Shown here piece after piece: positions 1 to 27,401 of a stretch of DNA of 64,000 nt. The stretch lies in the NCBI GenBank assembly GCA_963578775.1, contig CAUZEG010000002.1:9423-73422 (forward strand). The letters run 5' to 3'. This DNA is from Myxococcales bacterium. Lineage in GTDB: Bacteria; Myxococcota_A; UBA9042; UBA3505. The position numbers and the translations under genes were made by a program. How positions within the stretch are numbered: the stretch's first letter is position 1; each line of letters starts with the position of its first letter. Under the pieces are notes generated by a model. It did not search any database, was not told where the DNA came from, and saw nothing but the letters and a program-made list of their open reading frames with translations.

Positions 1-3000
1 CAGAAGGGCCAATACTGCTCGTAATCCGAGAAAGCATTGCGAACGATCTCGTAGGTGTCCGCACCCTCATCCCAGACATCGCAAGTCGGGCTGTAGCCAA
101 CCTGTTCATCCGAACAGAAGCGGTAGGGCACCATCGCACCATTATCCGTGCAGAAATCTCCATGGAAGTAATGCTCGCAATATTGTCCTTCGCCACAGAT
201 GCCGGCATCCGACGAGCAATCTTCGCCCGTGGCAAGCCCTTCCAGGCCCACGTTTTGACGGGACTGAATCTTCGAAGCATCACCCCCGAAAATCGACGGG
301 ATCTCGGTGTAATGGACTCTCCGGAACAGACGTTCCACGGGATCGCGATCTTGAAGGAATAAGGGGCTATTCGCCGGATCCATACTGGATGGATCGTTCA
401 TGTAATTCCAGACACCGGAGTAATCTGGAGCCTCTGTGAACTGCTCCACGACCTGTCCATAGGCATATTTGATGGCCGCACTGTCATAATGACCAACGCC
501 TTCAAATCGCGCGTTGAACTTGGCGCCGTAATCCATGACGGTCGAGCCTTGCATCTGGCGCATGCTATTGCCACCCTGGGCCAGGGTTTCGTCACCGAAG
601 GGACCACCAATCGGTGTCCATGTTCCACCCACGGTCTGGCCGCGAGCATCCCAGTATTCTGGGAAGTAGTTCATGGCGTCGGTCGACCCTTCAAAGTTGT
701 GACGTAGACCCAGCGTATGGCCTACTTCGTGTTCGGCTACGCCTTTGTAGATCTGGGCCCAGAGCTCTGCCTCAAAAGTATCGCGAAGCTCCTGAATACG
801 CTGCTTGATAGCCTCTTGGGTCTGGAAAACACGGTTGTCCTTCGTGGGCCACCAGAGGGCCTTGGGAAGATACACTGCGTTCGGGCTGGTAAGATCTACA
901 CGCCGAATCTCCTGTGCAAGAGAATCAATAACACTTCGAGTGCTGCAGTTCTCGGCATCGGCGGTCGCAGCTACCGGGAACTCACAGAAGCCTGTGCCGC
1001 CATTGCACTCAAGTCCGGCACCCGTACAATCCGCTTCTGTGGTGCAGCTTGGGAAGGCGCAGTAGTTGTTGTCGCCACAGGTCAGGCTACCGTCGACGGA
1101 ACCTGAAATGTACTTATAGCAGTCATCATCAACCTGGCAGGGACCAAGGGGGAGTTCGTTCACGAGCGTACATACCGCGTCGTCGTACTTGGTCTTATAC
1201 TCATTTGCCAGACCCAGGATGGCGCCGTCCGCAAACTCGGCCAGATACAGATTCTTCTCCATCTGTCCGCGGTAGTAATCCATCCGTTCGAGGTAACCAC
1301 CGTGATGCTTGAATGAAGCAAGGCTGTATTCCTTCTGCTCGTCCTCGGTAAGGGCCACACCGCTACCTACGCGTGGGTCCTTGAATAGAAGACGCAGATA
1401 ATCACCACCGATGATGGCTTCCAGTTCTGGAGCATCGTGGAGGCGGGCCAAACGCTGGCGTGCAAAGTCCTGGTCCGTCTGACTAGGACCGTTGACCTGC
1501 AATCGGAAACGGACATCATCCCCAAGCATACCGCTGGCAAGATCCTTAGCCTGGTCAAGCGTGTAGAAGGGGGGCTCTCCGTTGGACTTCAAACGCTTAA
1601 CCTGATTCGCCTCGCTTATAGCGTCTGCGTATTCCACCTCTCGCCAGTCTTTCACACCAGCAAGAAGCTCGATGGCGTCGATTGCTGTATGAGCGCCAAT
1701 CTTCATGGGCGCAACATAGTTGTAGGCTGCGGCCGAGATAATCTCTCCCGTAAGCGGATCCGCGGAGGAAGGTCCATATCCATACAGCCCGGCCTGAAGC
1801 GGCTCCGTTACAGCGTGAAGGAAATTGTAGCGAAGATCGCCGTTCTCATGGGCGCGTCCCATATCCTTGCAGTAGGTCTGGCAATAGCTTTCACTGGAAC
1901 CGGAATGGCATGCCTTGGTTCCGGTGGCAGCATTGGCCTCGGCATCGCTATTCTCGCAGAGGATGAACATGGGGAAGTCCCAGGTCTTTCCGGTACGAGT
2001 TTCTGCCACCTCATCGAATGGGGCAGCCCAATCCGCGGCAAGTTCGAGGCTCACCTGGACCAGAGCACGCGGGAAGTTCTTGTTCATATAGTACACGATG
2101 GGTCGGGGAGTCATCGCGTCGTAGTCGAGATTTCCATCCTCACCCACGATGTACTCTTCCCAGATGCGGTGACGATTCGCCTGGCGGCTGGCGCCGCTAT
2201 CAGTCAGCCCGTAGTTACAGTTGTAGGTATGGCGCTCCGTACGGAAATACCCGAACCGGTTCATATGCCGGTCATCATAACTGAGCGCAACATAGTCGGA
2301 CGCATGACCGTCAAGGGCCTTGTCCACGCGCAGCAGGGATGTGCGCATAGCGATCTGCTCACTGACGCACTCATACACACCGCCGGTATACCATGGATAG
2401 TACCAGCAGTAGGGGATCATGCCGAAGCCTGCATAATAGGTCGTGAGACCTTCAAGGACATGATGCGTCGTAAAGTCAATGTAGGCCACCGTATCGGCAT
2501 CATTGGATGCATTCCCAAAGGCATCCTCAATCCGGATACCCAGGCCATCGGCGCTCGATTCACCCTCATAAATGGTGAATGCTGCGTTACTGTTTACACC
2601 CGCGTTGTACGCAACCGGCACCTGGTTGGCCGAGAAATCAACGCGTATATAATCACGATCTGCCCAGTAGCGGTCGCTTGTGTTCTCACTTATGACATTC
2701 GTTTTCTCGCCGGTCGTGGCGTTGTATTCCTTCTGAATGTCAAAGTGGCTTGAAATCGACCAGGCCGCGACAGGAGCTCCTCGGTAGACAACCACCGGAA
2801 CGGTACGCTGCTCACCACAGACCTCGATAGTACGGGTGACGAGTTTCCGCAGCGAGGCAGCGTTGAGTCCAGACTTCAGCTGTGCTTCCGAAACGTCGGG
2901 ATTGCACCACTCAAGATCCTGGATAGTGATCTCCTCGTCCACGGACGAATCGAAGTTCCGGCATAAGGGGACATCCTTATCGGAACGGAAGCCAACAACA

Positions 3001-3284
3001 CCCGCATCTTCGGCGAACTCATAGGTCCGGTAGAAGTAGAGGGTATCTTCCTGGATCTCGAAGACCCCTCGCTCCATGGGATCCATCGCACCGATAAACG
3101 TATAGGCGCCCGTTGCGGGTGAATCGACAACCGTGCTTCGCAGGTACCACTCACCTTGTAAGAGGTCCTTTTGAATGGCGTTCGGCTGTACACGGTCAAT
3201 CTCGCCCATATCCTGTGCGCAACCCGCGAACAGAAGGAGAGTCAACAGAGTGAAAAGAAGTGAAATGGTGCGGATGGATTTCAT
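1..3284 (-). CDS. Giant secreted metzincin-type zinc metallopeptidase lipoprotein, paralog of the downstream 1777-aa protein. It is 5'-complete and 3'-truncated by the window edge, so it is not in the ORF track (no stop in window).
   Basis: Manual minus-strand translation from ATG at 3284 gives MKSIRTISLLFTLLTLLLFAGCAQD, a lipobox. That is followed by ...DLLQGEWYLRSTVVDSPATGAYTFIG..., alignable to the N-terminus of ORF 3352..8685. The same frame near 660-760 encodes EHEVGHTLGLRHNF (HEXXHXXGXXH) and ...GSTVMDYGAKF (Met-turn candidate). The frame stays open to position 1. Confidence 0.75.
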   Translation of the reverse strand, partial: MKSIRTISLLFTLLTLLLFAGCAQDMGEIDRVQPNAIQKDLLQGEWYLRSTVVDSPATGAYTFIGAMDPMERGVFEIQEDTLYFYRTYEFAEDAGVVGFRSDKDVPLCRNFDSSVDEEITIQDLEWCNPDVSEAQLKSGLNAASLRKLVTRTIEVCGEQRTVPVVVYRGAPVAAWSISSHFDIQKEYNATTGEKTNVISENTSDRYWADRDYIRVDFSANQVPVAYNAGVNSNAAFTIYEGESSADGLGIRIEDAFGNASNDADTVAYIDFTTHHVLEGLTTYYAGFGMIPYCWYYPWYTGGVYECVSEQIAMRTSLLRVDKALDGHASDYVALSYDDRHMNRFGYFRTERHTYNCNYGLTDSGASRQANRHRIWEEYIVGEDGNLDYDAMTPRPIVYYMNKNFPRALVQVSLELAADWAAPFDEVAETRTGKTWDFPMFILCENSDAEANAATGTKACHSGSSESYCQTYCKDMGRAHENGDLRYNFLHAVTEPLQAGLYGYGPSSADPLTGEIISAAAYNYVAPMKIGAHTAIDAIELLAGVKDWREVEYADAISEANQVKRLKSNGEPPFYTLDQAKDLASGMLGDDVRFRLQVNGPSQTDQDFARQRLARLHDAPELEAIIGGDYLRLLFKDPRVGSGVALTEDEQKEYSLASFKHHGGYLERMDYYRGQMEKNLYLAEFADGAILGLANEYKTKYDDAVCTLVNELPLGPCQVDDDCYKYISGSVDGSLTCGDNNYCAFPSCTTEADCTGAGLECNGGTGFCEFPVAATADAENCSTRSVIDSLAQEIRRVDLTSPNAVYLPKALWWPTKDNRVFQTQEAIKQRIQELRDTFEAELWAQIYKGVAEHEVGHTLGLRHNFEGSTDAMNYFPEYWDARGQTVGGTWTPIGGPFGDETLAQGGNSMRQMQGSTVMDYGAKFNARFEGVGHYDSAAIKYAYGQVVEQFTEAPDYSGVWNYMNDPSSMDPANSPLFLQDRDPVERLFRRVHYTEIPSIFGGDASKIQSRQNVGLEGLATGEDCSSDAGICGEGQYCEHYFHGDFCTDNGAMVPYRFCSDEQVGYSPTCDVWDEGADTYEIVRNAFSDYEQYWPF

Positions 3285-3351
3285 CGGTCCAACTCCAGCA
3301 AATGCGTAACGGGTGTTTTCAGAGATTCGTTGATTCATCATCATGGCCTCC

Positions 3352-6300
3352 TCAATACCCAACGGTTCCGTAGATTTCATTAAGAGAGCGGAGGATTTCA
3401 AGGCTCTCAATCAGTTCCTTGAGTTGGGCCTCCAACTTGAGCTTGGGCTCGCCAATTGCCGCCTCCCAGCTCGTCTTCAAAGCGTTCGCCTTTTCCAGCA
3501 TCCGGTAGGCGACCTCAAATGGGGCGCGTTCACCGTACTCATTGGCGTACAGATAGTTGTTGCTCAAGGCCGCGTAGGTCTTTTGCCCAAACGGATCGTC
3601 GAACGTGATCTTATTTACACCGGGGTTCGAATCGAATTGGGAACCATTACCCTCGTAGGTGATGGCCATCGCGTCCGTAAAGGTCGGGTCGAATCCCGCT
3701 GGCAGGTAGGACAGGCCGTACACTGCTGCAAAGAGCTTGAACGAGAAGTCATCGATAGAGGGAGCAACAACCGGTCCAAGAGAATGGCTCTCTTCAAGGG
3801 CTTCTTCATGGCTCGAACCACCGATAACCGGCCGTGGCACGAACACCCCGTCCTGTTCCGCACCGGCGAATAACTCATACTCATCCGCGACGATACCACC
3901 CAGAACATTGGTCAACTCGATCTGGTAAAGGGTGTTGAAACCAATGGACGTTGCACCACGAACACCGAGTTCAGACACGAAGTCAGAGGTGAAGTAGGCG
4001 GTAGAGTCCGTAAGGGTAAGAAGCGACGCAACTTTTTCCCAGAAACTCCCGATCCATACCGCTTGCGTGAAGTCGTAATATCCACCGCTGGTATTGAACT
4101 GGGTGTAGGGGAACTTCCCTAATCCGACCGGAATATCAAGCTCACTACCCGGTTCGCCGGTGTCGAAGCTGAAGTTCTCATAGGTCCCAGTGTCATTATT
4201 ATATTGGTATGACCCCGGTGATGGACTGGAGATCAGTTCCGTCAGGTACTGGAAGGCGACTTCTGACGTCACACGTAACGTACGACCATCGTACGGTGCA
4301 TCTTTCCAGTTCGCGAACCAGAGGTAGTCCTTAAAGATGTGGTAATACAGGGCATAGTACTGACCGGCATGCCCAAGCTGAGTCATATAGCGGTCGAGAA
4401 TGCGGGAGAAATAGTAGCTGGCGCTGCCGTACCGACCAAATCCGTAACGCTCACGTTTGAAAGCGTCAAAGATGTAGTAGTACTGCAGGCTATTCATTGA
4501 GTGATAGCTCATCTCGCCGATATCCACCCCAGTGTCGAAGTAATAGCAACCCAGATTGCCACGGTACTCGTCGTAGCAGGCCCGGTACGGCACCTCGATA
4601 TAGGTGAAATCCAACTCATCACGGATGTAGTTACTGGCCATCTGGTGTTCATAGGTGACCTGTTCCCAGGGAACCGTCACTCGCGACAGATTCTCCTTCA
4701 CTCCGATAAAGTTCTCGAGATGACCAAATCCACTGCTGGTCGTACCCGCGTAACGCCACCAGGATGTGTCCTTTACGTACGCAAAGACATTCGGAGGATA
4801 GTTGTAGTAATCCGCTGCGTTCTCGACGTATTTCTCGAGTTGACTCGTGTCATGATAGACTTCGATCATCTCGCCATAGCCGGCCTTGATCGCCGCTCGG
4901 TCATATTTACCGAGGCCATGAATATCCGAGTTGAAACGGCCACCGTAGTCCATAACCGTGCTGTACTGATATTCCGTTCGGCGGGCGTCTCGCTCGCCTT
5001 CCGTCATATAGGACCGTGGTGCAAACTTTTTGATCGGCTCAATCACCGTTTCTGTATAGGCGGCAACAACGATGTTCCCATCGCTATCACTGCACGCAGA
5101 CTCGGTGCAGTATTCGCCCTCGCCACAATCGCCTGTCTGCGTACACGAGCGGGTCGTACCACATTGATTCGTGGCCGTATCGCAAGTAAGCCCAGCCACA
5201 CAGGAGCCATCACTTGCACAAGGGACCTCGTAATCGATAGGTCCTTCACAATAGCCCGTCTTTGTGTCTGTCACGTCGACACAGAAGCTTCCAGCGGAAC
5301 CTTCCGGGTCACCACAGCTAAGACCACTACTGCAGTCAGAGTCATTGATACATTGAACAAAGGAACAGGTTTCAGACCAACCCGGTGTTTCGCACCAGTT
5401 GTCGTTTTGGCATAACACGAGCTCCTTCTCACGAATATCGAAGTACTCATCCTTGAAGTTGAATATATCGTTGGATCCCGAGAAGTTGTGTCGTAACCCT
5501 ATCGTATGCCCAACTTCATGCTCAATGACGCCGCCATAGATATGTTGTTCAAGGGCAACGCGGAGGTCTTCACCTGACAGTCCTTGATCATCTTTGAGGG
5601 CCTTCGCCAGACCATAGATGGAGTCATCGATGAAATCGGCCATAAACAGGCAGGTGTTGTTCTTCGCGTTCGTCAACATGCGCATACGCTCATGCTCAGC
5701 CTTTACTGCACTCTGAGTACCCCAGGTAAGCGGGCTCACCTTTTTCAGGGCCTCTGCGTCCAACGCGGCGCCTGGCTCCAGCTGACCGCCAGACAATGCA
5801 ACCACAATCTCGTTGTTGATCATCATCTGTTCAATCTTCGTACCCTTGATGCGATTGAAACGGGCCTCCAGTTGCTCCTGTGTCGGGAAACCGCCCAACA
5901 CTTCACCGAGAAGTTGTTTCCGGTATTCCTCATCGGAATGGAAGCGCCACAGTTCTGGTGCCTCATGGGGCATCATCATCCGCATGGGTGCGGCCGGCTG
6001 CCTGCTGGTCAATGCCATTACCGCCGGGCTCGAAGCCGGTAACTTGTCCGTTGGACGCGTTGCTGGAGTAAATTCGCCTGGCATCTGAAGCCCGGCATGC
6101 ATGGTACCAATCTCGTTTTCCTCAAGGCTCTTCAGGAAATCCTTAACGTACTTACCCGAGATGGTGTCGTCGACAGATAGATCTCCATGAACCAGGTCCA
6201 TAAGATCGCGAGCCCACTGGCTATAGGTACGAAGTGGTGCACCATAGATATTCGCCGCTGCAAAATACAGCTCACCGGTCTGCGGATCCGCCGCCGACGG

Positions 6301-8685
6301 ACCATAACCGAGGGGGCTCGACATATGCGCTTCGTGAATATAGTACACGAGATTATAGCGAGCATCGCCGATCTTCTTCCGGCTATTCGGGTTGGCCGGG
6401 TCATCACCACAAGCATTGTGCGAATCACCGACGTCATCGGTCCAGGTGTACCGACAGTCATCGTACAGACCCCAGCTACAGTTCTTGTTGGAGTTAAAGG
6501 CCGCTTTATCGGCATCGGACCAGGAGTCCACATTACTACCATTATTCTTGTCGACCAGCTCATAGCCCGCATCGGTCCAATAGCCGGTAAACTGATTCCG
6601 GCAAAGCACGTAGGCCGGAGGAATGGAGTCCTTGATCGCCTCAACCTCGGCTAGATCTGCGGCCGTGATCTCGGGCATGGAACCCACGCAACGACCAAGG
6701 CCACCGGAATGGAAGCAGGTCACATCCTGGCGACCATTTCCATCCACCAACTTCACAGAATGCATACCGTTATAGCCGGCGTTGATGAATCCTGAGTCCT
6801 GGCCAAGGGCGAGTGCGTCCGAACGTCGGCTACCATTGATAACCACGTTCTGCGAACTATGGTCCGTCAACATATTCACGACACGAATTCCCTGATCTCC
6901 AGCAAGACCATCAGGCCCGGTCAAAAGGCTTGATTGGGCTTTCGCCAGAACACCACCACCATATACGAAGAGGTAGATGTTCGAAGTTTCAAAGACCACA
7001 TTGGTAAGCTCGGCACCGTCACCACCCTCCACGTGGGCCGAGATGGTGAACTTACCGGTATCGAATACCGCGTAATCCTCGTAGTTATTGCTGGGGTCAA
7101 ACTCTACACCAGCCGCAGCATCAATCCCGCCGATCTTGAAATCGACAGAAGACGTATTTGGATCCGCGTTCACGAAGCGAACCAGTGATTTGCCCGCGTG
7201 AACGTTGGATGGGGGATACTTGGCATCGTTGGTTACGATGGATTTCACACTATCACCGTCATTATAGACGATGACGGTACGGCCCTTGGGCTGCGGAACA
7301 TCCAGATCTACGACCTGGGCAAATGTCGCAATATCAGTACTACAGTCGGCGTCGGTGTCACAGAATCGTGTCAGCAACATACCGCCGCTCTCGGAATCCC
7401 GACGGTCCCAGTACAGCATCCAGGCGATGGTATCACTGAAGATATCATTCCATCCGTCCGCCATCTCGTAGGTCTCGTCCATCAGATACTCGGGGAAGTC
7501 TGCCGATAAATGGTAGATGATGGGTTTCACACCTCGACCTTCGTCAAAGCGTTGGCTCGGACGCTTCAGTCGACGACGCTTACATTCCCCACCTACAAAC
7601 CACTCTTCCTGGTAGCAGAACTGCTGCGCGTCGGTGTCGCAATCGGAGTCAACGTAACAGTCCGAAGCACCTTCAACGTCTTCAAAATTCCAGACCTGAC
7701 GCCAGAGATTCCAGCGATTGATCTTCTGGTCACGACCCGCATAGGTAAGCCCCGAATTCTCGGAGTAGGTGTACCGCTCGGTCATGAAAAAACCAAACTT
7801 CTCCTGATGGAAGGAGTTGTGCCATAGCTTCGCGTTATAGGTCGGAACTGGATCCACGCGCTTAAAGCTATAACGGGCCTTCACCACGCCACCGGCGCAG
7901 TCACCCGACGCCAGGGTATAGACACTGCAATAGCCGGAGGACTGGGGCTCCGCGAAGAACTTGACCACAAAGCTGATATAGTCCTCGGTTATCTCTGGCC
8001 GGTCCGGATTGTCCTCACCCTCTACTTCCTGGACAAAGTAGGGCACGCTATTTGTGGGCATACGACCAACTACGAACTCGAAGTCGTTGATCGCATTTTC
8101 GGACCAGTCCACTCGCATGGACTCCCGCTGATACCAGGGAACGTCGACTGAGTTTTCTTCAATCACATTGGACTGTTCACCCGTCTGCGCATTGTATTTT
8201 CGCTTTACATCGAAGTGCTTTTCGATCGTGAAGGCCACAATCGGCTGACCCACAAACATCTCCATGAAGTCGTTGTCGGGATTGCTATCCGTCATAGCCT
8301 TACGGTCCCAATATCTCCGAATCTGGCGTTTGTGGTAGTCCTTTTCCGCACCCTCAAGCGTCTCCGTAACCGGATACGCTACAAGGTGGTTTTCCTGCAC
8401 ATCCCATACGATCTTTGGGTTTGCACCAAAGGACATCTCACCAACGAAGGTAAAGGCTACGCCATAGGGTACCTCGGTAATGGTACGAACCATGTACCAC
8501 ATACCCTGGAGGTCCTTTTTGTTCACGATATTCGGTTGCGACCGATCAATATCACCAACATCTTCGGTGCAGCCAAATCCACCCGCTAGGCAGACAACAA
8601 GGATAAGAAAAAACGAACGAATTTTCTGAAGACTATTGTGGAACATTCCGTTCTCCTGATTTCCCGGTTTGGGATTCGAGTTCAA
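3352..8685 (-). CDS. Giant (1777 aa) secreted metzincin-type zinc metallopeptidase lipoprotein with a Cys-rich module inserted in the catalytic domain.
   Basis: ORF track. N-terminal lipobox LAGGFGC. HEVGHTIGLRHNF (HEXXHXXGXXH) encoded near 5477-5513. STVMDYGG (Met-turn candidate) near 4945-4968. Dense CxxxxC repeats lie between them. A paralog sits immediately downstream. Confidence 0.8.
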   Translation of the reverse strand: MNSNPKPGNQENGMFHNSLQKIRSFFLILVVCLAGGFGCTEDVGDIDRSQPNIVNKKDLQGMWYMVRTITEVPYGVAFTFVGEMSFGANPKIVWDVQENHLVAYPVTETLEGAEKDYHKRQIRRYWDRKAMTDSNPDNDFMEMFVGQPIVAFTIEKHFDVKRKYNAQTGEQSNVIEENSVDVPWYQRESMRVDWSENAINDFEFVVGRMPTNSVPYFVQEVEGEDNPDRPEITEDYISFVVKFFAEPQSSGYCSVYTLASGDCAGGVVKARYSFKRVDPVPTYNAKLWHNSFHQEKFGFFMTERYTYSENSGLTYAGRDQKINRWNLWRQVWNFEDVEGASDCYVDSDCDTDAQQFCYQEEWFVGGECKRRRLKRPSQRFDEGRGVKPIIYHLSADFPEYLMDETYEMADGWNDIFSDTIAWMLYWDRRDSESGGMLLTRFCDTDADCSTDIATFAQVVDLDVPQPKGRTVIVYNDGDSVKSIVTNDAKYPPSNVHAGKSLVRFVNADPNTSSVDFKIGGIDAAAGVEFDPSNNYEDYAVFDTGKFTISAHVEGGDGAELTNVVFETSNIYLFVYGGGVLAKAQSSLLTGPDGLAGDQGIRVVNMLTDHSSQNVVINGSRRSDALALGQDSGFINAGYNGMHSVKLVDGNGRQDVTCFHSGGLGRCVGSMPEITAADLAEVEAIKDSIPPAYVLCRNQFTGYWTDAGYELVDKNNGSNVDSWSDADKAAFNSNKNCSWGLYDDCRYTWTDDVGDSHNACGDDPANPNSRKKIGDARYNLVYYIHEAHMSSPLGYGPSAADPQTGELYFAAANIYGAPLRTYSQWARDLMDLVHGDLSVDDTISGKYVKDFLKSLEENEIGTMHAGLQMPGEFTPATRPTDKLPASSPAVMALTSRQPAAPMRMMMPHEAPELWRFHSDEEYRKQLLGEVLGGFPTQEQLEARFNRIKGTKIEQMMINNEIVVALSGGQLEPGAALDAEALKKVSPLTWGTQSAVKAEHERMRMLTNAKNNTCLFMADFIDDSIYGLAKALKDDQGLSGEDLRVALEQHIYGGVIEHEVGHTIGLRHNFSGSNDIFNFKDEYFDIREKELVLCQNDNWCETPGWSETCSFVQCINDSDCSSGLSCGDPEGSAGSFCVDVTDTKTGYCEGPIDYEVPCASDGSCVAGLTCDTATNQCGTTRSCTQTGDCGEGEYCTESACSDSDGNIVVAAYTETVIEPIKKFAPRSYMTEGERDARRTEYQYSTVMDYGGRFNSDIHGLGKYDRAAIKAGYGEMIEVYHDTSQLEKYVENAADYYNYPPNVFAYVKDTSWWRYAGTTSSGFGHLENFIGVKENLSRVTVPWEQVTYEHQMASNYIRDELDFTYIEVPYRACYDEYRGNLGCYYFDTGVDIGEMSYHSMNSLQYYYIFDAFKRERYGFGRYGSASYYFSRILDRYMTQLGHAGQYYALYYHIFKDYLWFANWKDAPYDGRTLRVTSEVAFQYLTELISSPSPGSYQYNNDTGTYENFSFDTGEPGSELDIPVGLGKFPYTQFNTSGGYYDFTQAVWIGSFWEKVASLLTLTDSTAYFTSDFVSELGVRGATSIGFNTLYQIELTNVLGGIVADEYELFAGAEQDGVFVPRPVIGGSSHEEALEESHSLGPVVAPSIDDFSFKLFAAVYGLSYLPAGFDPTFTDAMAITYEGNGSQFDSNPGVNKITFDDPFGQKTYAALSNNYLYANEYGERAPFEVAYRMLEKANALKTSWEAAIGEPKLKLEAQLKELIESLEILRSLNEIYGTVGY

Positions 8686-8725
8686 ATATTGTCGACATCT
8701 CGTCCAGACGAGATCATCTTGCGTT

Positions 8726-9736
8726 CTAATAGGTTCCCGTAAGGGCTAGATAGAATGTGGTTCGATTCGAGTTCGGTGAAATGAAGTCGAAAAACGGGAA
8801 CCGAATCGAGCTGTTGTCGGATGTAAGCGGCGACTGTCCCGTCGAAGCACCAAACGACATCAGAAGTTCTTTTTTGGGTGTCTGCCATGACAAATCGATT
8901 GTCGATTGCGTCAGATCACGAACACCACGGCCAGTGTCACCATTTTCAGGGGTCAGCCCATCGTCGTTCTCCGCCGAATATGTGAAGTACTTCACGAAGA
9001 CATAGTCAAAGGTGAGATAGAGCTTCGACGGCAACGTAAACATTACGGTGCCACGATTCAGCCATGAAAACTCAACATTTCGACCGCCTATCGCAATAAC
9101 TCCACCAAGATCTTCATTTCCCTGGTCACGTGCAAAGGCGACTCCAAGATCGGCATCAACCGTGGGACTGGTATACCGATTGAAGTTCTTTCCTGCCCGC
9201 GTTTCGTAAAAGAACATGGCCTTTTTATAGGTGTATCTAAACTTCCCGCCCACTCGAATCACAGCCAGGCGATTCGCGTACCGTGATGCCAGAGACGTCC
9301 CCACAACCCCGGAGACATACGGTGTAAGGGAAACCCCCAGGGATGGGAACTTGTACATATTATTATGCACATAACCCAACTCCAGATCGCCGAGCATTAT
9401 CTGGTTTGGCGTCGTGGTTGAGCTCTCGTAATTCTGGACCAGCTCCTGGCTGACCGAGAATTTCAGATAGGCTTGACGTTTGTCGCCTTCAATGCGCCAG
9501 AACGGGTTCACCGATACGGCCACCAGGTCGTACGCGCGTTGATCCGATCCAGCTACGAAGGTGCCGAGGCCAAGCGTATTACTGAGGGCAACTCGCCCCC
9601 CGAACTTGGACTTGGCCTTATCATCCTTGGACTTTTCCTGTTCGTCTAAAACAGCGCTCTGACCCAGAGCTACCTGCGACGCCAGGGGCGCAACCACCAG
9701 AGAAAAAACAAACACCAGTCGTACAAAGTTCTTCAA
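8726..9736 (-). CDS. Outer-membrane beta-barrel protein (hypothetical), first gene of the OMP-metzincin cluster.
   Basis: Signal peptide MKNFVRLVFVFSLVVAPLASQVALGQS. Alternating beta-strand-like sequence. C-terminal ...LALTGTY with a terminal aromatic. 40 nt upstream of the metzincin gene on the same strand. Confidence 0.5.
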   Translation of the reverse strand: MKNFVRLVFVFSLVVAPLASQVALGQSAVLDEQEKSKDDKAKSKFGGRVALSNTLGLGTFVAGSDQRAYDLVAVSVNPFWRIEGDKRQAYLKFSVSQELVQNYESSTTTPNQIMLGDLELGYVHNNMYKFPSLGVSLTPYVSGVVGTSLASRYANRLAVIRVGGKFRYTYKKAMFFYETRAGKNFNRYTSPTVDADLGVAFARDQGNEDLGGVIAIGGRNVEFSWLNRGTVMFTLPSKLYLTFDYVFVKYFTYSAENDDGLTPENGDTGRGVRDLTQSTIDLSWQTPKKELLMSFGASTGQSPLTSDNSSIRFPFFDFISPNSNRTTFYLALTGTY

Positions 9737-10098
9737 AACAAGCTCCCAGAACAGCTAACGTTTTTGAGAATCGAGAGACAGACGGACAAGCGCACTCTGC
9801 ACTCGCTATATACTCGGGGGAGCGGGAGTTGTACTGTTTCGCCCTTCCGCATGTCAACCGTTCTCGTGCTCGATGTTGTAATACAGGCTTCCCTCGGGTC
9901 GAGGGGTGAATCCTTCGACCCGGCAACCCAGCGCGAGACTCTACGATTCACCCGCTACATTCGCAAAGGTCATGCCAAAACACAGGCACCAGGGAAAAAC
10001 GTGTAAACCACTGAAAACACATGTCTTTACCAGATGTGCCAGACCGGGCTTATGTGTGCAGAATGTCTACAGTGTTCGTTTTTGCACGCCTGGCCGAC
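9737..10098. promoter_or_regulatory. Intergenic region. Likely promoter of the OMP-metzincin cluster and 3' end of mpl. Contains an 8-bp inverted repeat, cgggtcga...tcgacccg.
   Basis: 362-bp non-coding gap upstream of the minus-strand OMP gene. The inverted repeat is near 9893-9930. No functional assay is possible here. Confidence 0.25.
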
Positions 10099-11532
10099 TC
10101 AGTCCTGAAGTCGCTCCACTAAACGCAGGGGAAGTCCAAGAAAATTCCGGCCGCTCATAAATAGAACGACATCGCCACTACGTACCTCCGCTTCAAGCAC
10201 CTTCAGAATAGTATCCGCATCCGGAATGAAGCGAGCATGTATACCATTCTCCCGCAGATCGGCCGCCAACAGATCCGCGTCAAGACACTCCTCGACAGGA
10301 AGGCCATCATCCTTCTCCAGGGGACGAACAAAGATCACCTCGTCCGAGCCGTGAAAGGAATCCACATAGGTCTTCTGGAAAAGACGACGACGACTGGTGT
10401 TGGATTCGGCCTCAAATAAGGCCCATAGCCGGCGCTCCGGAAATTGGGTACGGATGGCTGCGATGGTTTCTCGAACGGCCGTCGGATGGTGGGCGTAATC
10501 CTGCAATACCCGGATTCCACGTGGTTCGCCCTGCAGCTCCTGCCGCCTCCGCACCCCGGGAAAGACAGGCAATGCTGCTCGAAGGGCTTCCACGTCGGCT
10601 CCTTCGGATACGGCGATACTTATGGCAGCCACTGCGTTCCATACATTATGGCGTCCGGGTTGGGGCAACTCGAAGAACCCCAGATCTCTACCTTCGTAGA
10701 TAAGCCGAAAGCGCGTCCGATCGGCCTGATTGGCGAGCCGCACATCCGTAGCGAAGGCGTCGAGGTTATTCGCATCGCCCTCAATACCGTAGAGACAGAT
10801 CCGTGCCGGTCCGTAGCTGGCGGCCGCCCGTGCCTCCTCATCGGCCCCGTGGACCCACAACTGGTCGTTCGGATTGAACAAGGCGGAATAGGTGCGAAAA
10901 GCTCGTCGCACCGCATCAAAATCACGGTAGATATCCGCGTGATCGAATTCTACCGAGGTCAGGATTCCTATACGCGGACGATAGTGGACGAATTTGGGCC
11001 GCTTATCGAAATAGGCGGTATCGTATTCATCCGCTTCCAGAACAAAGTGAGGACCTGTACCGGCGCTCAGTCCACTTTCAAAGCCGATGGGCACCCCGCC
11101 AATCATATAGCCAGGATCGAGGCCGGCCTGTTTCAGCAGCCAGACCAGTATGGATGTGGTCGTGGTCTTTCCGTGTGTTCCTGCGACCGTGATGGATCGG
11201 CGTTGGCTGAGGAACATGTCCGATAGAAGTTCCGGCAGGGATATATGTGGAAGCCCAAGCCTGCGCATCGCGACGGCTTCCGGATTGGTTCGGCGCGTAA
11301 TATTACCCACCAGAACCAGCTCGGGAGACTCTTCCGTTATGTTTTCCTCGGCAAAGCCCAGAATTACATTCACGCCCGCATTTGCAAGGCGATCAGACAT
11401 GGGTGGATAGCAATCACGATCCGATCCACGCACCTCGTGGCCCTGCTCTTTCAAGAGACAGGCAATACCACCCATGACGGAGCCGGCAACGCCTATGATA
11501 TGTATGGACCGGCTCTGTTGAAAATCGATCAT
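10099..11532 (-). CDS. mpl: UDP-N-acetylmuramate:L-alanyl-gamma-D-glutamyl-meso-diaminopimelate ligase (murein peptide ligase, Mur ligase family).
   Basis: HIIGVAGSVMGGIACLLKEQGHEVRGSD... and VAGTHGKTTTTS (Mur ligase P-loop). Overall colinear with E. coli Mpl. Confidence 0.8.
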   Translation of the reverse strand: MIDFQQSRSIHIIGVAGSVMGGIACLLKEQGHEVRGSDRDCYPPMSDRLANAGVNVILGFAEENITEESPELVLVGNITRRTNPEAVAMRRLGLPHISLPELLSDMFLSQRRSITVAGTHGKTTTTSILVWLLKQAGLDPGYMIGGVPIGFESGLSAGTGPHFVLEADEYDTAYFDKRPKFVHYRPRIGILTSVEFDHADIYRDFDAVRRAFRTYSALFNPNDQLWVHGADEEARAAASYGPARICLYGIEGDANNLDAFATDVRLANQADRTRFRLIYEGRDLGFFELPQPGRHNVWNAVAAISIAVSEGADVEALRAALPVFPGVRRRQELQGEPRGIRVLQDYAHHPTAVRETIAAIRTQFPERRLWALFEAESNTSRRRLFQKTYVDSFHGSDEVIFVRPLEKDDGLPVEECLDADLLAADLRENGIHARFIPDADTILKVLEAEVRSGDVVLFMSGRNFLGLPLRLVERLQD

Positions 11533-11583: not shown

Positions 11584-13218
11584 TCAGAAATCCCAGAAGA
11601 CATCGACACCATTCAATAGGATGGGCCCCACATCGGAATCCGCGCTCACCAGACCATCGCCTGGAAAAAATAGTACCGTCTTCGTTGCGATTGAGAACGT
11701 GTCGTGCAGACGATAATCAAGGCCCAGTCTGGCCTCCACACCATAGAATCCGCCCCCGCCCGGTGTATTTTTGCTGGTCATCGCCCAGGACCCCATCGCC
11801 GACAGATCAATGCCCAGGGCGTGGCGGCCCCGGAGAATATCAAAGCCCAGGGTCGGGCCTACGTACACGGTGTTCGTGGCGGCCCCGAACAGGTAACGAT
11901 AGAGCACCTCGTCAACGAAAAAGCTTGGATGGGCGATGAACTGTTCAAAGGTCTTATTCTGCGAATACTCGGTCTGCGTATTGTAGATTTCGGTCGATGG
12001 CGCCACTGTATTGCTCCCATCGAGCACCCCCACATACGTGCCTTCCGGTTCGCCCGTGGCAAAGCCCGTATCCAGTCGTGCGCGTATACGGCCTGTCGAA
12101 TAGGTGGCCCGGAGTGCACCGGCAAAGGCCTGCACATCGCGGGAAAGACCTTCGTCTGAAAAGGCCTGGGTCTGGGCAATGTCCCCAAGAATGGCTTGTA
12201 ATTCGAGACCGACCGCCAGGTGGTGGCCATCTGCGGGCCAGCCCTCAGCATGAAGGTAGAGTCCGGGATACCAGAGGTCCGCATTCCGTGGGATATAGGC
12301 AATGCAATCAAAACTCGTCTGGGGTCCGGTACCCGCTGCATCTTCGACACAGGCCCCGGGATCGAGAGCCTGATCGGATTGCCGGCCAGCACTCCGCATG
12401 CGGAGACGGACCGTCCAATCGAAGAGCCACCCATTGGCTAGTCGCGCGGCACGTCTTCGGTTTCGCTCCTCGAAGGGCGTACGCAACGCACCAGATAGTT
12501 CCACCAGAAACTCGCTCACATCATCCGTCTGATCGAGGTCATAAGGTTGTCCTGCAACAAACTGTCCCCGCTCGCTGGTGAACCCCTCTCCTGGCCGACG
12601 CCACGCGATACGAGTCCCCATATCGAATAGATCCGTACGAAGGTCGATGCCATCGACCAGGGTCTGCACATCGCAGTCGGAACATTCTCCATCGTTCTCC
12701 GACAAGCCCAGACCGAAGTGTTCCGGCATTCGGCCCATCCGCACCCAGAGGCGCGAGAAGGGTTCCCATGTCCCATATAGGTAGGGAACTCGAACACTGT
12801 CGCTGGGATGATCTCCGTCAATGCGTACAAGGGAATCGGGAGATTCCTGGCCATGAAAACCTATCCCTGTTCCCGCCTGGATGTTCCCAAATGCATCAAG
12901 CGCCATAGATACAGAAAAGGTGTCGGAGATATGAAATTCGGGGCGGTAGCGAAGTCTCATATCGCTTATCCAGCCCATACGCTCGACCCCAGCACCCGCC
13001 GATCCAAACCCGAGACTGTTACCACCCAGGCCATTGTCTACGAAGGTGTTTCGCGTGCGTATGGTACCGCTATGAACCACATACACCAGACCTCTCGGAA
13101 TATGTACATCCGTGGACTCGGCCGCCCCCGTATCAGCCCAGACAGGAGATTCCAGCACAGGAAACACCATTACCAGGAGGGACAGCACGACCAGGAATCG
13201 TAGGAACAAACTCTTCAC
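11584..13218 (-). CDS. Outer-membrane beta-barrel protein (hypothetical).
   Basis: Signal peptide MKSLFLRFLVVLSLLVMVFPVLESPVWA. C-terminal ...VDVFWDF, the aromatic terminal residue typical of OMPs. Confidence 0.5.
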   Translation of the reverse strand: MKSLFLRFLVVLSLLVMVFPVLESPVWADTGAAESTDVHIPRGLVYVVHSGTIRTRNTFVDNGLGGNSLGFGSAGAGVERMGWISDMRLRYRPEFHISDTFSVSMALDAFGNIQAGTGIGFHGQESPDSLVRIDGDHPSDSVRVPYLYGTWEPFSRLWVRMGRMPEHFGLGLSENDGECSDCDVQTLVDGIDLRTDLFDMGTRIAWRRPGEGFTSERGQFVAGQPYDLDQTDDVSEFLVELSGALRTPFEERNRRRAARLANGWLFDWTVRLRMRSAGRQSDQALDPGACVEDAAGTGPQTSFDCIAYIPRNADLWYPGLYLHAEGWPADGHHLAVGLELQAILGDIAQTQAFSDEGLSRDVQAFAGALRATYSTGRIRARLDTGFATGEPEGTYVGVLDGSNTVAPSTEIYNTQTEYSQNKTFEQFIAHPSFFVDEVLYRYLFGAATNTVYVGPTLGFDILRGRHALGIDLSAMGSWAMTSKNTPGGGGFYGVEARLGLDYRLHDTFSIATKTVLFFPGDGLVSADSDVGPILLNGVDVFWDF

Positions 13219-13416: not shown

Positions 13417-14178
13417 ATGGACAACAAAGAAAAACAATCTGAGACTTCTATGGCTTCCCGTACACGGCGCGACGGGACCACGAAACGAAAGCTTCCGGTC
13501 TTTCCGATCATTATCGCGGCCCTTATTGGGGTGATCGCGGCTCTTATCGTGGGCTTCAGCCTTCGTGGAAGTACCAAGAACATTGAAGTGGCTGACTTGA
13601 CTCGGGATGCGGACAGTTATCTTGGTGAACGCGTAAAGATCCAGGGAACGATCGCTGGCCACTGGACCGAAAAGAACTCTCGGGACATCTTCATTCAGCT
13701 ATCGGGAGAAACCGGCGAAGAGGTCGTATTCCATTACACAAAACCACTGCCGGATCCCTACCAGAAGAATCGTATCGCGATAGCGGAGGGAGTGTTCATC
13801 GACGGGATACGAATTGACCCCAAAAAGGTACAAGACGTCGAAAAGACGGGGCTGTTACTGGCCCAGGTCACCGGTATGCCAGAGGGAGACGCCATTGACC
13901 TGGTCTCCAACCCTACAGCCATCACGGCCTATGGAACATCGGTAACGCTTTCTAACGAGCGGAAGTTGTCCATCCCCAAGGATGCCTATGAGAAGGTCAA
14001 GACATTCACAGGGGGATCGGACACGTCTCAAACGCTGGCCGGTATCAGCTATACCCGCTTCATCGAAGGGCGGCGGCTTACCGTCAAATGCCCCTCCAAA
14101 TATGTTCGGGAAGGTGTGAGCCCGGAACAATACGAAGAGTACAAGGACAAATACCCCGAACACGTGCCCCAGAGTTAG
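13417..14178 (+). CDS. CcmE-like membrane-anchored OB-fold protein, a variant cytochrome c maturation heme chaperone homolog with a C-terminal extension.
   Basis: N-terminal TM helix LPVFPIIIAALIGVIAALIVGF. The segment LRGSTKNIEVADL...GERVKIQGTIAG...IFIQLSGETGEEVVFHYTKPLPDPYQKNRIAIAEGVF is alignable to E. coli CcmE (LRSNIDLF...IRLTGTVMPG...[36 protein letters not shown]). Sits directly upstream of ccmF. The canonical HxxxY is absent. Confidence 0.5.
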   Translation: MDNKEKQSETSMASRTRRDGTTKRKLPVFPIIIAALIGVIAALIVGFSLRGSTKNIEVADLTRDADSYLGERVKIQGTIAGHWTEKNSRDIFIQLSGETGEEVVFHYTKPLPDPYQKNRIAIAEGVFIDGIRIDPKKVQDVEKTGLLLAQVTGMPEGDAIDLVSNPTAITAYGTSVTLSNERKLSIPKDAYEKVKTFTGGSDTSQTLAGISYTRFIEGRRLTVKCPSKYVREGVSPEQYEEYKDKYPEHVPQS

Positions 14179-14189
14179 GACGCTAACCT

Positions 14190-17100
14190 ATGCATGTGTT
14201 TGGACAGGTATTGCTTGGTCTCGGATTTCTGGCTTCTCTGGCCTATGCTGGAACCGCCTTTCTAGGTGCCCGCTTTCGCCGTCAGAACCTCCTCGACGCG
14301 TCACGATACGGTTTGTACGCCCTGGCCGGAATGTTCTGGGGTATATCTCTGCTGCTATCCTACGCCTTTCTCACCCATGACTTTTCCAACACCTACGTTG
14401 CCGCGTACAGCGATCGGGGGATGAGTAATCTGTATCTTCTCTCCGCCTTCTGGGGAGGGGAAAAGGGTGCGCTGTTGCTATGGGTTACCTCCCTGACCAC
14501 ATTTTCGGCGATTTCGATCCACAGCAACCGACATAAGGACCCACGCTGGATTGGTACCACCACAGGGATCCTGCTCCTATGCATCGCCTTCTTTGAGATG
14601 CTGATGGTGTTTGAGTCGAACCCCTTTTCCACCTGGCTTACTTTCGGGGGGCCAGCCGATGGCCAGGGGATGAATCCGGTCCTGCAGAATGTGACGATGA
14701 TGATCCACCCGCCAAGTCTGCTGACGGGATTTATCTGTTTCACGATCCCATTTGCCTACGGATTGGGAGCACTGATCGTTGGTAAGCTCGATACAGAGTG
14801 GATTCGTGTAACCCGTGTCTGGACCATCATCTCGTGGCTATTCCTATCGGTGGGCCTCATCCTGGGTGGCTTATGGGCCTACCAGGAACAGGGTTGGGGC
14901 GGTTACTGGATGTGGGACCCGGTCGAGAACGCCGGATTGATACCATGGTTCACCGCGACCGCATTCTTGCATAGCGTGATGATCCAGGAACGCCGCGGCA
15001 TGTTGAAGCGTTGGAACGCGATCCTGCTTTGCCTCACATTTCTGCTGACGATCTTTGGGACGTTCCTTACCCGAAGTCAGTTGATTGCATCCATCCATGC
15101 CTTCGCGGATAGCAAACTCCCCTACTATTTCCTGTCGTATATGTTGGTCATCGCGACCGTCAGTTTTCTGGCCATCCGAAAACGATGGGACGCGTTGAAG
15201 AGTGAACATCGGATCGAGTCTTTCTGGTCCCGTGAGTCCTTCTTCATCTTAAACAATGTCATGCTGGTTTCCTGTTCGTTCATCGTGATCTACGGAACCC
15301 TGTTCCCGAAGATCAGCGCCTCGCCAGGATTTCGTCGCGTCGTCAACAACACATTCATCGACGGATACAACGTAACTATAGGGCGAATCCTCCCCAATAT
15401 GAGTCAACTGACACAATCCTCCGATCTGGGTCAGGACTTCTTCAACACCGTCATTCCACCCGTAGCGCTATGTCTTCTGTTCCTGTCGGCCGCTGGCCCG
15501 ATCATCGCCTGGCGCCGAGCCACGGTTACAAATTTCCGGAAGAACTTTGTCGCCCCTCTCTTATGGGCAATTATTCCAACGCTGGTAACGATTGGCTTTT
15601 TCGTAAACCGCACCTTTGAACAACTTACCTTCAAAGGCCTGTCCGAATCGGAAGCCTGGACAGCCCTATGGGCGGGGACCGGTCAGCTTGAAGTCTATGT
15701 GTATCTGACCTTTTACCTCTGTTATTTCGTCATCGCTTGCATCATAATGGAGTACATGAGGGCCATCGCCGTTCGTCGCCAGAGCACGGGAGGCTCCAGA
15801 CTCAAACACGCCCTTATACTCACCCTGAAGGCACGCCGGAGATTCGGCGGCTACATTGTGCATCTGGGGATGGTTCTATGTTTCTTCGCCTTTGCCGGAA
15901 CGGCGATGAAAACATCGTTCAAGAATAAGATGTTGCACCCTGGAGGTACCGTCACTCTGCATGACTATCGTGCAACGCTGGCCCGAATGGACTTCGAGTA
16001 TGAATCCGAAGGGAGGTTCCTGGCCACGAAAGCTACCGTAGTGGTCACACAGCGAAACGAACCCTTCAATCGTCGCATCATCCATAGTTTCTCCCGTGCT
16101 CTGGAAGCTAAAGGAATCGATCGGGCCGTCATTCGGGCGAAGGATGGGTTCGCCAAACTCCAGATCTATCTTCCCGATCCAGACCAGAGGCATCGGCTTC
16201 TGGCGGCCGGCCTTATCAGGACGGAATTCGAATCCAATTTTGATGAACTCGAAAAAGACATCCGACCCGATGCCGATCCGCCGGTCTTTGCCCACCGCTA
16301 TCGGTATAAACATGAGAAGGCCCTGGAGCTGGCACGACTACCGGATGGTCGGCCCGCGTATATGTTCTATGTGCGCGAGTTAAAAGCCCGGCTGGCACAG
16401 CTCGAATCCCTCGGCATCAAAGGCCGTGTGGATATGTCGAACCCGGATGTGTTGAACGTCGACTTCGAAACCCTGGAGCATATGCAGCGCTACGAGGCCG
16501 ATGTGATGCCTCTTGCAGAGCACCTTCCAGATTCCTACAGCATTCGTGAAGGGCTTGCCTCATTCCGGCTCCTGATCGCCGACAATGCGGCCAATATCAT
16601 GGAAGGATCTTCGCCGAAGAAGTCCGACACCAAGCTCGGCGATTTGGGCGAAAGCCCTACTCTCCCCACTCTGTTTGCAGCCGCCGAAAAGACACTCGAT
16701 GCGTTGAACCCGAATATTGACTGGGCCACAGGATTCGAGGCAAAAAACGCCCTTGGTATCGACCGGGCCAAACGGCTGAAGAAAACCAGTCAGCTTCTCA
16801 ACCGACTGGAATACCAGGCTCTCATCCTACCCGTCGATCGTTTCGAATCGCAATCCAAGGCCGAGAACCAGGCCTGGACCGAACTGAGCCGTGCGCTCCG
16901 CAACCGTAGTCTCCCATGGATACGTGTCATACTCGTGGGGCCCGGTGCCGAATCCGCGCAGACTCTGCTGGGAAATATGGGGATACGGACCTATATTGCT
17001 CGAACCGCCCAGGAGTTCGAAGCGGAATTACGGGCCGCGACCGTCAACATCATCCCGGTGGAGATCATACCTACAGGCATCGGAAGCGTGATGATCCCCG

Positions 17101-21173: not shown

Positions 21174-21243
21174 AGGGCCCTCGTCATGGATTTCATCGCT
21201 GCGATTCTAGTGGATCCACAGGCCGAAAACCAGCGAGATTTAC

Positions 21244-25171: not shown

Positions 25172-25323
25172 TGGAAGTACCTCCAAACGTTGCCTATATA
25201 GCAATATTCGTTGCACGGGAAAGTTACCCCTCGACTGAGGGAGCGCGCATCGTAGGCAGCTAGAACGTCCGTGTCAAGCCTCAATATAAGATTTTTTTCA
25301 ACCGGTGAATGGTATGGAGTCCG

Positions 25324-27200: not shown

Positions 27201-27206
27201 GTTTCG

Positions 27207-27280
27207 GGTACCCCGTACGGGATTCGAACCCGTGATACCGGCGTGAGAGGCCGGCGTCCTAACCGCTAGACCAACGGGGC
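27207..27280 (-). tRNA. tRNA-Glu (anticodon CUC).
   Basis: Manual fold of the reverse complement: acceptor GCCCCGT/ACGGGGT (G1.U72), D-stem GTCT/GGAC, anticodon stem CCGGC/GCCGG with loop CUCUCAC (U33, anticodon CUC, A37), T-arm ACGGG-TTCGAAT-CCCGT. Similar to E. coli tRNA-Glu. Confidence 0.8.
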
Positions 27281-27290
27281 ACAAACAAAG

Positions 27291-27363
27291 GGTTCGGGGA
27301 CGAGGATTCGAACCTCGACTAGCGGCACCAGAAGCCGCCGTCCTGCCATTAGACGATCCCCGA
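27291..27363 (-). tRNA. tRNA-Gln (anticodon CUG).
   Basis: Manual fold: acceptor TCGGGGA/TCCCCGA (U1-A72, typical of bacterial tRNA-Gln), D-stem GTCT/GGAC, anticodon stem GCGGC/GCCGC with loop UUCUGGU (anticodon CUG), T-arm CGAGG-TTCGAAT-CCTCG, discriminator A then CC. Confidence 0.8.
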
Positions 27364-27401
27364 ATCGTGTTGCCGTAGGTAGCCAAAACCACCGAACGCT
27401 G

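Follow-up and report, generated by a model that had tools for sequence, protein, structure and literature searches.

In Vibrio cholerae, the surface lipoprotein hydrolase VolA is co-transcribed with FadL, the barrel through which its product is taken up (PMC3656444), and in type XI secretion the Slam proteins combine an N-terminal TPR domain with a 14-stranded DUF560 barrel, their substrates having an 8-stranded C-terminal barrel (PMC5449769). The locus compared with these systems here lies in a stretch of 64,000 nucleotides from a Myxococcales bacterium (GenBank assembly GCA_963578775.1, contig CAUZEG010000002.1, positions 9,423 to 73,422 of the forward strand), the whole of which is called the window. 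It contains a gene for an outer-membrane (OM) β-barrel protein (gene 1), followed by two genes for giant paralogous lipoproteins of the metzincin type (genes 2 and 3). Our results show that barrel and protease genes of these two families belong together in a conserved module.

Among the lipoprotein zinc proteases of Gram-negative bacteria, E. coli SslE/YghJ and V. cholerae AcfD resemble the giants in size (about 1,500 aa), but they are enzymes of the M60/M98 type whose export runs through the type II system and which lack a small barrel dedicated to them. The classical DUF4953 proteins (PF16313; Bacteroidota and others, about 850 aa, domain order DUF5118-DUF5117-DUF4953) belong to the same superfamily as the giants and have in common with them the zinc-motif spelling HEVGHTLGLRHNF and the S..MDY Met-turn. 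However, the giants are 1.4-2 times larger, carry about 300 helical residues between the β-sheet subdomain and the zinc helix in addition to Cys-rich inserts, and, unlike the classical proteins, combine a lipobox with a partner barrel gene. The metzincins of solved structure (EcxA, serralysin/alkaline protease, astacin, MMPs, ADAMs, archaemetzincin) share HEXXHXXGXXH, the Met-turn and the two-subdomain fold with the giants, and the S-x-x-M-x-Y of the giants recalls the astacin/serralysin Met-turn with its Tyr ligand; nevertheless, outside the zinc helix no sequence match is significant, and in the giants a large insertion interrupts the catalytic domain, which is part of a protein of 1,450-1,760 aa. 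With respect to gene order, FadL-VolA resembles the module in that an OM barrel gene is directly followed by a lipoprotein hydrolase gene after a short gap, but there a 14-stranded FadL is combined with a lipase, here a 12-stranded barrel with metzincins whose coupling is read from synteny only. Slam genes likewise adjoin lipoprotein genes, with family-to-family pairing across many genomes (PMC5449769); the TPR domain and the 14-stranded DUF560 barrel of Slam are absent from the 336-aa, barrel-only gene 1 product. In type Va autotransporters, a single polypeptide supplies both passenger and 12-stranded barrel, and a linker helix occupies the pore, whereas the genes of the module are separate.

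The barrel and protease genes form a conserved, evolutionarily coupled module in Myxococcota, Bdellovibrionota and Gammaproteobacteria, and this conclusion is firmly supported. The open reading frames (ORFs) of 80 loci, one genome per species, were searched with purpose-built hidden Markov models, and a barrel-family gene was found to adjoin a protease gene in 39 of them, directly upstream and co-oriented in 36; in the others the barrel gene is downstream (L020, L074) or divergent (L045). These 39 loci comprise 20 of the full-length, Myxococcota-type loci and 19 of the 21 loci from Bdellovibrionota and Gammaproteobacteria, including Vibrio harveyi, Vibrio sp., Photobacterium, Aeromonas australiensis, Ferrimonas, Motilimonas, Bdellovibrio and Bacteriovoracaceae. 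The distance from barrel stop to protease start is short (median 27 nt, range -4 to 105, n = 31), and several of the distant barrel matches were significant already with the first-round profile, which was built without them. When the barrel family was sampled first, a lipoprotein metzincin gene stood immediately downstream in all four informative cases (P0129, P0283, P0237, P0166), one of which carries two protease genes, while the contig of a fifth case was too short for a verdict. The pairing persists where the flanks differ, as in L002 (barrel, 1889 aa, 1482 aa), L004 (barrel, 1746 aa, 1428 aa) and L003 (barrel followed by only one protease, of 1235 aa). A third conserved gene was looked for and not found: neighbour clustering placed no other ORF family in more than 7 of 63 loci, and the window's own neighbours are not conserved. 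Classical Bacteroidota-type DUF4953 genes have no adjoining barrel gene in the surveyed loci. A functional link between the OM protein and the proteases, suspected when the window was first annotated, is thus strongly backed by adjacency across three phyla.

No description of the barrel-protease pairing was found in the searchable literature, which also returned no papers on DUF4953, PF16313 or DUF5117 and nothing relevant on metzincin lipoproteins of Myxococcus, Vibrio or Bdellovibrio; the Flavobacterium elastase FP0506 is an unrelated 296-aa gluzincin. Some individual records are worth mentioning in their own right. The Myxococcota-type module of L005 (CAZPHC010000019.1) is on a contig titled 'uncultured Enterobacteriaceae bacterium' and one Vibrio harveyi metalloprotease copy is named 'MoxR-like ATPase', both of which are probable mis-annotations. 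In a Lake Baikal Myxococcales metagenome-assembled genome (MAG), two family members are divergent with no barrel gene between them (L017, 259-5067, minus strand, and 6948-11522, plus strand).

The features of the window's locus, all on the minus strand, are as follows.

9737..10098, minus strand: intergenic region of 362 nt, 5′ of the barrel gene; presumed from its position to hold the promoter of the three-gene operon
8726..9736, minus strand: gene 1, 336-aa outer-membrane β-barrel protein, first gene of the module, with signal peptide and C-terminal aromatic residue
approximately 9662-9736, minus strand: signal peptide of gene 1
3352..8646, minus strand: gene 2, 1764-aa lipoprotein metzincin, the 'long' paralog (3352-8685 in the ORF table, from an upstream TTG)
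8569..8646, minus strand: lipoprotein signal peptide of gene 2, MFHNSLQKIRSFFLILVVCLAGGFGC; lipobox Cys codon 8569-8571, Cys column invariant
7138..7311, minus strand: DUF4397-like segment in the insertion specific to gene 2 (PF14344, 27.5 bits, below the cut-off of 30.6)
5488..5520, minus strand: zinc-binding motif of gene 2, HEVGHTIGLRH (HEXXHXXGXXH)
4945..4962, minus strand: Met-turn-like STVMDY of gene 2, about 180 residues past the zinc motif, with a Cys-rich insertion between
1..3284, minus strand: gene 3, the 'short' paralog, a lipoprotein metzincin of 1459 aa represented by its first 1094 codons; the rest lies left of the window (L001, 18647-19742)
3219..3284, minus strand: lipoprotein signal peptide of gene 3, MKSIRTISLLFTLLTLLLFAGC; lipobox Cys codon 3219-3221, C22 invariant in 85 sequences
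699..731, minus strand: zinc-binding motif of gene 3, HEVGHTLGLRH; H852, H856, G859 and H862 invariant, E853 in at least 90%
528..545, minus strand: Met-turn-like STVMDY of gene 3; M917 and Y919 invariant

The ORF table and the translations bear out three co-oriented minus-strand genes (8726-9736, 3352-8685, and 3284 to past the left edge), which appear to form an operon. Chance is excluded for ORFs this long with hundreds of full-length homologs at E = 0. Gene 1 starts with TTG at 9736, 7 nt behind GGGAG, and its product ends in ...LALTGTY. The true start of gene 2 is almost certainly the ATG at 8646 and not 8685, because AGGAG precedes this ATG at 6 nt and the public gene call likewise gives 1764 aa, a sequence recorded identically in NCBI, JGI and ENA. 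The initial annotation was right about the position and the lipobox (LAGGFGC) of gene 2, which the choice of start leaves unchanged, and about the gap of 67 nt to gene 3, but its length of 1777 aa becomes 1764 aa and its gap of 40 nt to the barrel gene becomes 79 nt. Gene 3 starts at 3284 (MKSIRT...LLFAGC), 8 nt behind GGAG; a possible other start, the ATG at 3341 directly behind the stop of gene 2, would give a gap of 10 nt and 1478 aa with an unchanged mature protein. The expectation that gene 3 runs past the window edge proved correct, and its C-terminus was recovered by extending the contig: an exact-protein look-up led to ENA ERZ27247711 k141_921084 (185.5 kb, locus L001), where gene 3 is an intact 1459-aa ORF without stops or frameshifts and therefore not a pseudogene. 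Its end (...LEIFRGLGRLYSNY) parallels that of gene 2 (...LEILRSLNEIYGTVGY). The closest named records, which fall into the same clusters at 90% identity or more, are MBR58341.1 (a member of the gene 2 cluster) and MBR58342.1 in GenBank, from a marine MAG, both named 'hypothetical protein [Myxococcales bacterium]'. Public annotations call the proteases 'zinc-dependent metalloprotease' and the barrel 'hypothetical protein' or 'membrane protein'. A sigma-70 consensus scan detected no promoter upstream of the barrel gene, a terminator scan was uninformative, and Rfam and tRNA scans gave no match within 1-9736.

The paralogy of genes 2 and 3 is borne out by BLASTP, in which they align in four colinear blocks (25-44% identity, best E = 2e-35), and by the tree described below. 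Their zinc and Met-turn motifs lie where they had first been reported. In an alignment of 85 sequences the invariant columns include C22, H852, H856, G859, H862, N863, F864, M917 and Y919, and E853 is kept in at least 90%, which upholds both the conservation of HEXXH in orthologs and the lipoprotein signal peptides of the two giants, whose lipobox Cys is invariant. A regular-expression search found lipobox and HEXXHXXGXXH in nearly every fetched relative, whichever of the three phyla it came from; the two genes of each tandem pair both carry them. On this evidence neither paralog looks like a dead enzyme, and both giants are probably active metzincin endopeptidases. A word-indexed search detected 268 homologs of gene 3; of those listed, nearly all have 1,380-1,550 aa and align end to end at 33-40% identity, and where they are named they are a 'zinc-dependent metalloprotease' or 'hypothetical protein' of Myxococcota MAGs.

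Membership of DUF4953 ('Met-zincin', PF16313), suggested in the initial annotation, is confirmed for both giants, which score 30.1 bits (gene 2) and 46.1 bits (gene 3) against a gathering cut-off of 24.2; the match covers the zinc-site helix only, that is, 20-35 of 316 profile positions (16-36 in gene 2, 2-35 in gene 3). The other families that had been expected were not recovered. Pfam gives no match to DUF5117 or DUF5118 in either giant, although a Maribacter control (L057) matches both strongly, and M43 and M66, like M12 and M10, stay below threshold for both proteins. NCBIfam has no match for any of the three window proteins. Gene 2 differs from gene 3 by an insertion of about 290 residues (about 430-720), which is absent from gene 3 and skipped by the BLASTP blocks and whose faint PF14344 match recurs in the gene 2 ortholog of L004, and by a second, Cys-rich insertion of about 125 residues between zinc motif and Met-turn (18 Cys in residues 1079-1185). 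The mature proteins contain 34 (gene 2) and 28 (gene 3) Cys residues, clustered in the inserts, which fits an oxidising extracytoplasmic location.

Residue +2 after the lipobox Cys is Thr or Ala, not Asp or Lys, and both giants are most likely lipid-anchored in the outer membrane. The residues just past the lipid-anchor Cys (window 3219-3160 and 8568-8510, minus strand; alignment A5) are unusually conserved for a tether. In Myxococcota they read C-A/T-Q/E-D-x-G-x-I-D-R-x-Q-P-N and in most gamma-proteobacterial and Bdellovibrio relatives C-x(4,5)-P/A/G/S-Y, and this stretch could be a sorting or docking signal; across the surveyed loci it does not correlate with the presence of the barrel.

The fold of the protease was approached by profile comparison and by structure prediction. 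With hhalign, gene 3 residues 305-533, namely the linker together with the catalytic domain's first half, align with classical DUF5118-DUF5117-DUF4953 proteins at 99.8% probability, and the blocks RxGYF, PIVYY, W..xF and YGP..DP.TGEI are common to both; the part following the zinc helix aligns weakly (alternative hit 3). The zinc helix lies about 320 residues beyond the aligned block in gene 3 and about 30 residues beyond it in the classical family. An AlphaFold2 model of gene 3 residues 1-1094 was computed from 85 sequences (mean predicted local distance difference test score, pLDDT, 82.9; predicted template-modelling score, pTM, 0.84). In it, a β-rich N-terminal part (about 30-370) is followed by a β-α-β subdomain (396-523). 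Residues from about 547 to 800 form a long helical insertion, whose segment 678-777 is predicted with lower confidence, and HEVGH lies on a helix of 40 residues (817-857); beyond this come the Met-turn region and then a helix at 932-943. All elements of a metzincin fold are present in the model, namely a five-stranded sheet with its backing helix, the active-site helix and the C-terminal helix. We infer that the topology of gene 3 is that of a canonical metzincin in which a large insertion separates the last strand of the sheet from the active-site helix, and the Met of the Met-turn would lie beneath the zinc site. The best structural match is the toxin metzincin EcxA, and the fold comparison also named archaemetzincin, MMP-9, MMP-12, ADAM17, astacin, snapalysin, BMP-1, atrolysin, leishmanolysin, fragilysin, ulilysin and CpaA. 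A PDB search with the single protease sequence found no match, and a profile search of the PDB gave only marginal matches to Bft and serralysin, at the HEXXH motif.

A rough neighbour-joining tree, calculated on 1,085 well-occupied columns and carrying no support values, separates the 'long' first and the 'short' second genes of L001, L002, L004-L009, L036 and L038 into two clades with congruent internal topology. The long/short duplication therefore predates these genomes, so the duplicated protease pair recognised from the start in the window is real and is older than the genome that carries it. A second split of long/short type is seen in L027, L029, L035 and L040, while the pairs of L022, L033 and L034 look like more recent duplications. 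Tandem duplication with both active sites kept has thus occurred repeatedly in the protease family.

Structure prediction also bears out the proposal that gene 1 encodes a β-barrel OM protein. The AlphaFold2 model, built from 14 sequences (pLDDT 68.8, pTM 0.70), has 12 strands, turns of 2-5 residues on one side, long loops on the other and no periplasmic domain, and the predicted fold class, an outer-membrane barrel, is clear. Whether a solute channel or a secretion barrel is modelled is not separable by the structure-match scores: the 12-stranded barrels NanC/KdgM channels, COG4313, Tsx, FapF and autotransporter β-domains share 4-14% sequence identity with gene 1, which, unlike autotransporters and FapF, has neither a fused passenger nor the N-terminal coiled coil of FapF type. 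Pfam and NCBIfam give no match for the gene 1 protein, including PF13505 (OMP_b-brl) and DUF560, and no TPR or POTRA domain; a Bdellovibrio member of the family (L056) reaches 29.8 bits with PF13505 against a cut-off of 28.7. The word-indexed search found 10-14 relatives, 4 of which were added with the barrel profile, and an exhaustive profile search yielded 1,283 cluster representatives at E <= 1e-3 and 293 at E <= 1e-30. A signal peptide, an alternating pattern of strands and the conserved motifs PTS..S and KNFH.Y are visible when the family is aligned, and most members end in Y, F or L. The barrel family, with about 1,300 clusters, has no Pfam model and is unannotated.

What function does such a module perform? 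The reading that we prefer, and can hold only tentatively, is that proteolysis at the outer membrane is coupled to the passage of polypeptide or peptide through the barrel. The operon would encode an OM proteolysis module consisting of a 12-stranded barrel and two paralogous zinc endopeptidases; the lipid-anchored proteases would cleave polypeptides at the outer membrane, across which the barrel expressed with them would conduct the cargo. Either the products of surface-exposed enzymes may pass inwards through the barrel, or unfolded substrates may enter through it to reach periplasm-facing enzymes. The two paralogs would widen the range of substrates, the long one with its DUF4397-like and Cys-rich inserts, and the module would serve nutrient acquisition, which is suggested by the predatory or proteolytic heterotrophic character of the host lineages. 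The same logic is found in SusCD/RagAB-type systems. Uptake is favoured because the barrel has no periplasmic, chaperone-like domain, because many of its 12-stranded relatives are substrate channels in catabolic operons, and because gene order and spacing mirror those of V. cholerae FadL-VolA. Nutritional proteolysis at the outer membrane is most likely the function, and a role of the barrel in product uptake is at least as likely as a role in export.

Several observations weigh against coupled proteolysis and passage. Small peptides normally cross general porins, which makes it less than obvious why a special channel would be required. The barrel family is apparently dedicated to one protease family, as a translocon or docking partner would be. 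The barrel model is of moderate quality only, at pLDDT 68.8 from 14 sequences. No barrel-family gene adjoins the protease, at the locus itself, in 22 of the 42 full-length loci; a few of these 22 are cut by contig ends and one (L042) has a probable remote member of the family in its upstream OM protein-like ORF (hhalign 89%). The similar upstream ORFs of L016 and L041 are unrelated.

The main rival explanation, possible though on present evidence doubtful, is that the barrel is instead a dedicated export or anchoring partner, which translocates the lipoprotein metzincins or docks them at the surface in the manner of Slam, of a trans-acting autotransporter barrel, or of MtrB holding MtrC. The strict reciprocal family-to-family adjacency in three phyla would be expected of such a partner, Slam genes adjoin their lipoprotein substrates in 52% of cases (PMC5449769), the stretch past the lipid-anchor Cys is unusually conserved, and the barrel has autotransporter and FapF matches. 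On the other hand, the barrel contains no DUF560, TPR or POTRA domain and has 12 strands, not 14; a cargo of 150-190 kDa, with 28-34 Cys per mature protease and likely disulfide-bonded, would be hard to thread through so narrow a pore; and proteases from loci without a barrel gene keep the N-terminal motif and the C-terminal helix, so that no candidate recognition signal at either end tracks with the barrel. The last two points argue for uptake over export. A 'split autotransporter', in which the C-terminal helix of the protease (LELxRxxxxxYEY) plugs the barrel, is ruled out, as the motif is equally present in Myxococcota loci without a barrel and absent from the barrel-linked gamma-proteobacterial and Bdellovibrio proteins. 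It seems rather unlikely that barrel and giant metzincins constitute a previously unrecognised, dedicated two-partner OM machine of predatory Myxococcota/Bdellovibrionota and of Vibrionaceae/Aeromonadaceae, which would be either a new surface route for very large lipoproteins or a polypeptide-import pore with docked proteases.

An improbable explanation is that the proteases are periplasm-facing lipoproteins engaged in envelope maintenance, that is, in BepA-like turnover of OM and periplasmic proteins, with the barrel as substrate, regulator or merely co-regulated gene. Lipoproteins delivered by Lol face the periplasm by default, no C-terminal domain for type IX secretion (T9SS CTD) or MYXO-CTERM signal is seen at the protease C-terminus, and the genes flanking the locus in the window are housekeeping or envelope genes (Mur ligase, cytochrome c maturation). 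However, these flanks are not conserved, the family is patchy, concentrated in predatory or proteolytic lineages and repeatedly duplicated, unlike core housekeeping genes, and the extreme size and the Cys-rich, adhesion-like inserts are better suited to extracellular substrates. Finally, that metzincins on the surface or in vesicles attack envelope proteins of prey or host, with the barrel needed for biogenesis only, is also improbable, since neither a toxin-delivery domain nor an immunity gene recurs near the module and the proposal concerns biological role more than mechanism and overlaps the other explanations, even though the module occurs in predators (Myxococcota, Bdellovibrionota) and in the animal pathogens Vibrio harveyi and Aeromonas veronii and its best structural match is the toxin metzincin EcxA.

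The rest of the window is ordinary chromosome with genes for a Mur ligase, CcmE/CcmF-like proteins, UDP-glucose dehydrogenase, shikimate dehydrogenase and RibF. A 544-aa signal-peptide protein without Pfam match, encoded two genes upstream of the module (11584-13218, minus strand) and ending in ...DVFWDF, looks like an unrelated outer-membrane barrel; other loci do not keep it near the module. At 13417-18263 (plus strand), a CcmE-like gene of 253 aa precedes a CcmF-like protein of 1357 aa, which has Cytochrom_C_asm and CcmF_C in its first 630 or so residues and no assigned domain in the C-terminal 700 or so. In a 547-aa protein (19530-21173, minus strand), a match to the copper type II monooxygenase C-terminal domain stands beside a weak one to cytochrome c (CBB3-type), which is an unusual pairing, and the ORFs at 22754-25216 (820 aa) and 18235-19458 (407 aa), both on the minus strand, have no Pfam match. 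Tandem tRNA-Glu(CTC) and tRNA-Gln(CTG) genes (27206-27364, minus strand) are the sole Rfam/ARAGORN matches in the 64-kb window. To the left of the window, directly downstream of gene 3, L001 encodes a 570-aa protein (19843-21555) without Pfam match, which has no relative in 84 fetched loci and is thus an orphan outside the conserved module.

The significance of these genes can be considered from two sides. On the one hand, the clan of the enzymes is well known and their Pfam superfamily has been recognised, though not characterised, and if the module is only a nutritional protease with its channel, the result is a useful annotation and no surprise. On the other hand, the barrel represents a large family without a model, and the surface placement of lipoproteins and the transit of polypeptides across the outer membrane are open questions for which few machines are known (Slam, LptDE, BAM, the type II system). 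A module of two families is now defined, an unannotated barrel family and giant DUF4953-type lipoprotein metzincins, in three phyla, and a large protease family receives its first structural and architectural description: its members are lipid-anchored, their catalytic domain is split, and tandem duplication recurs among them. As the module is present in the tractable Vibrio harveyi, Aeromonas veronii and Bdellovibrio, the coupling between barrel and protease is directly testable.

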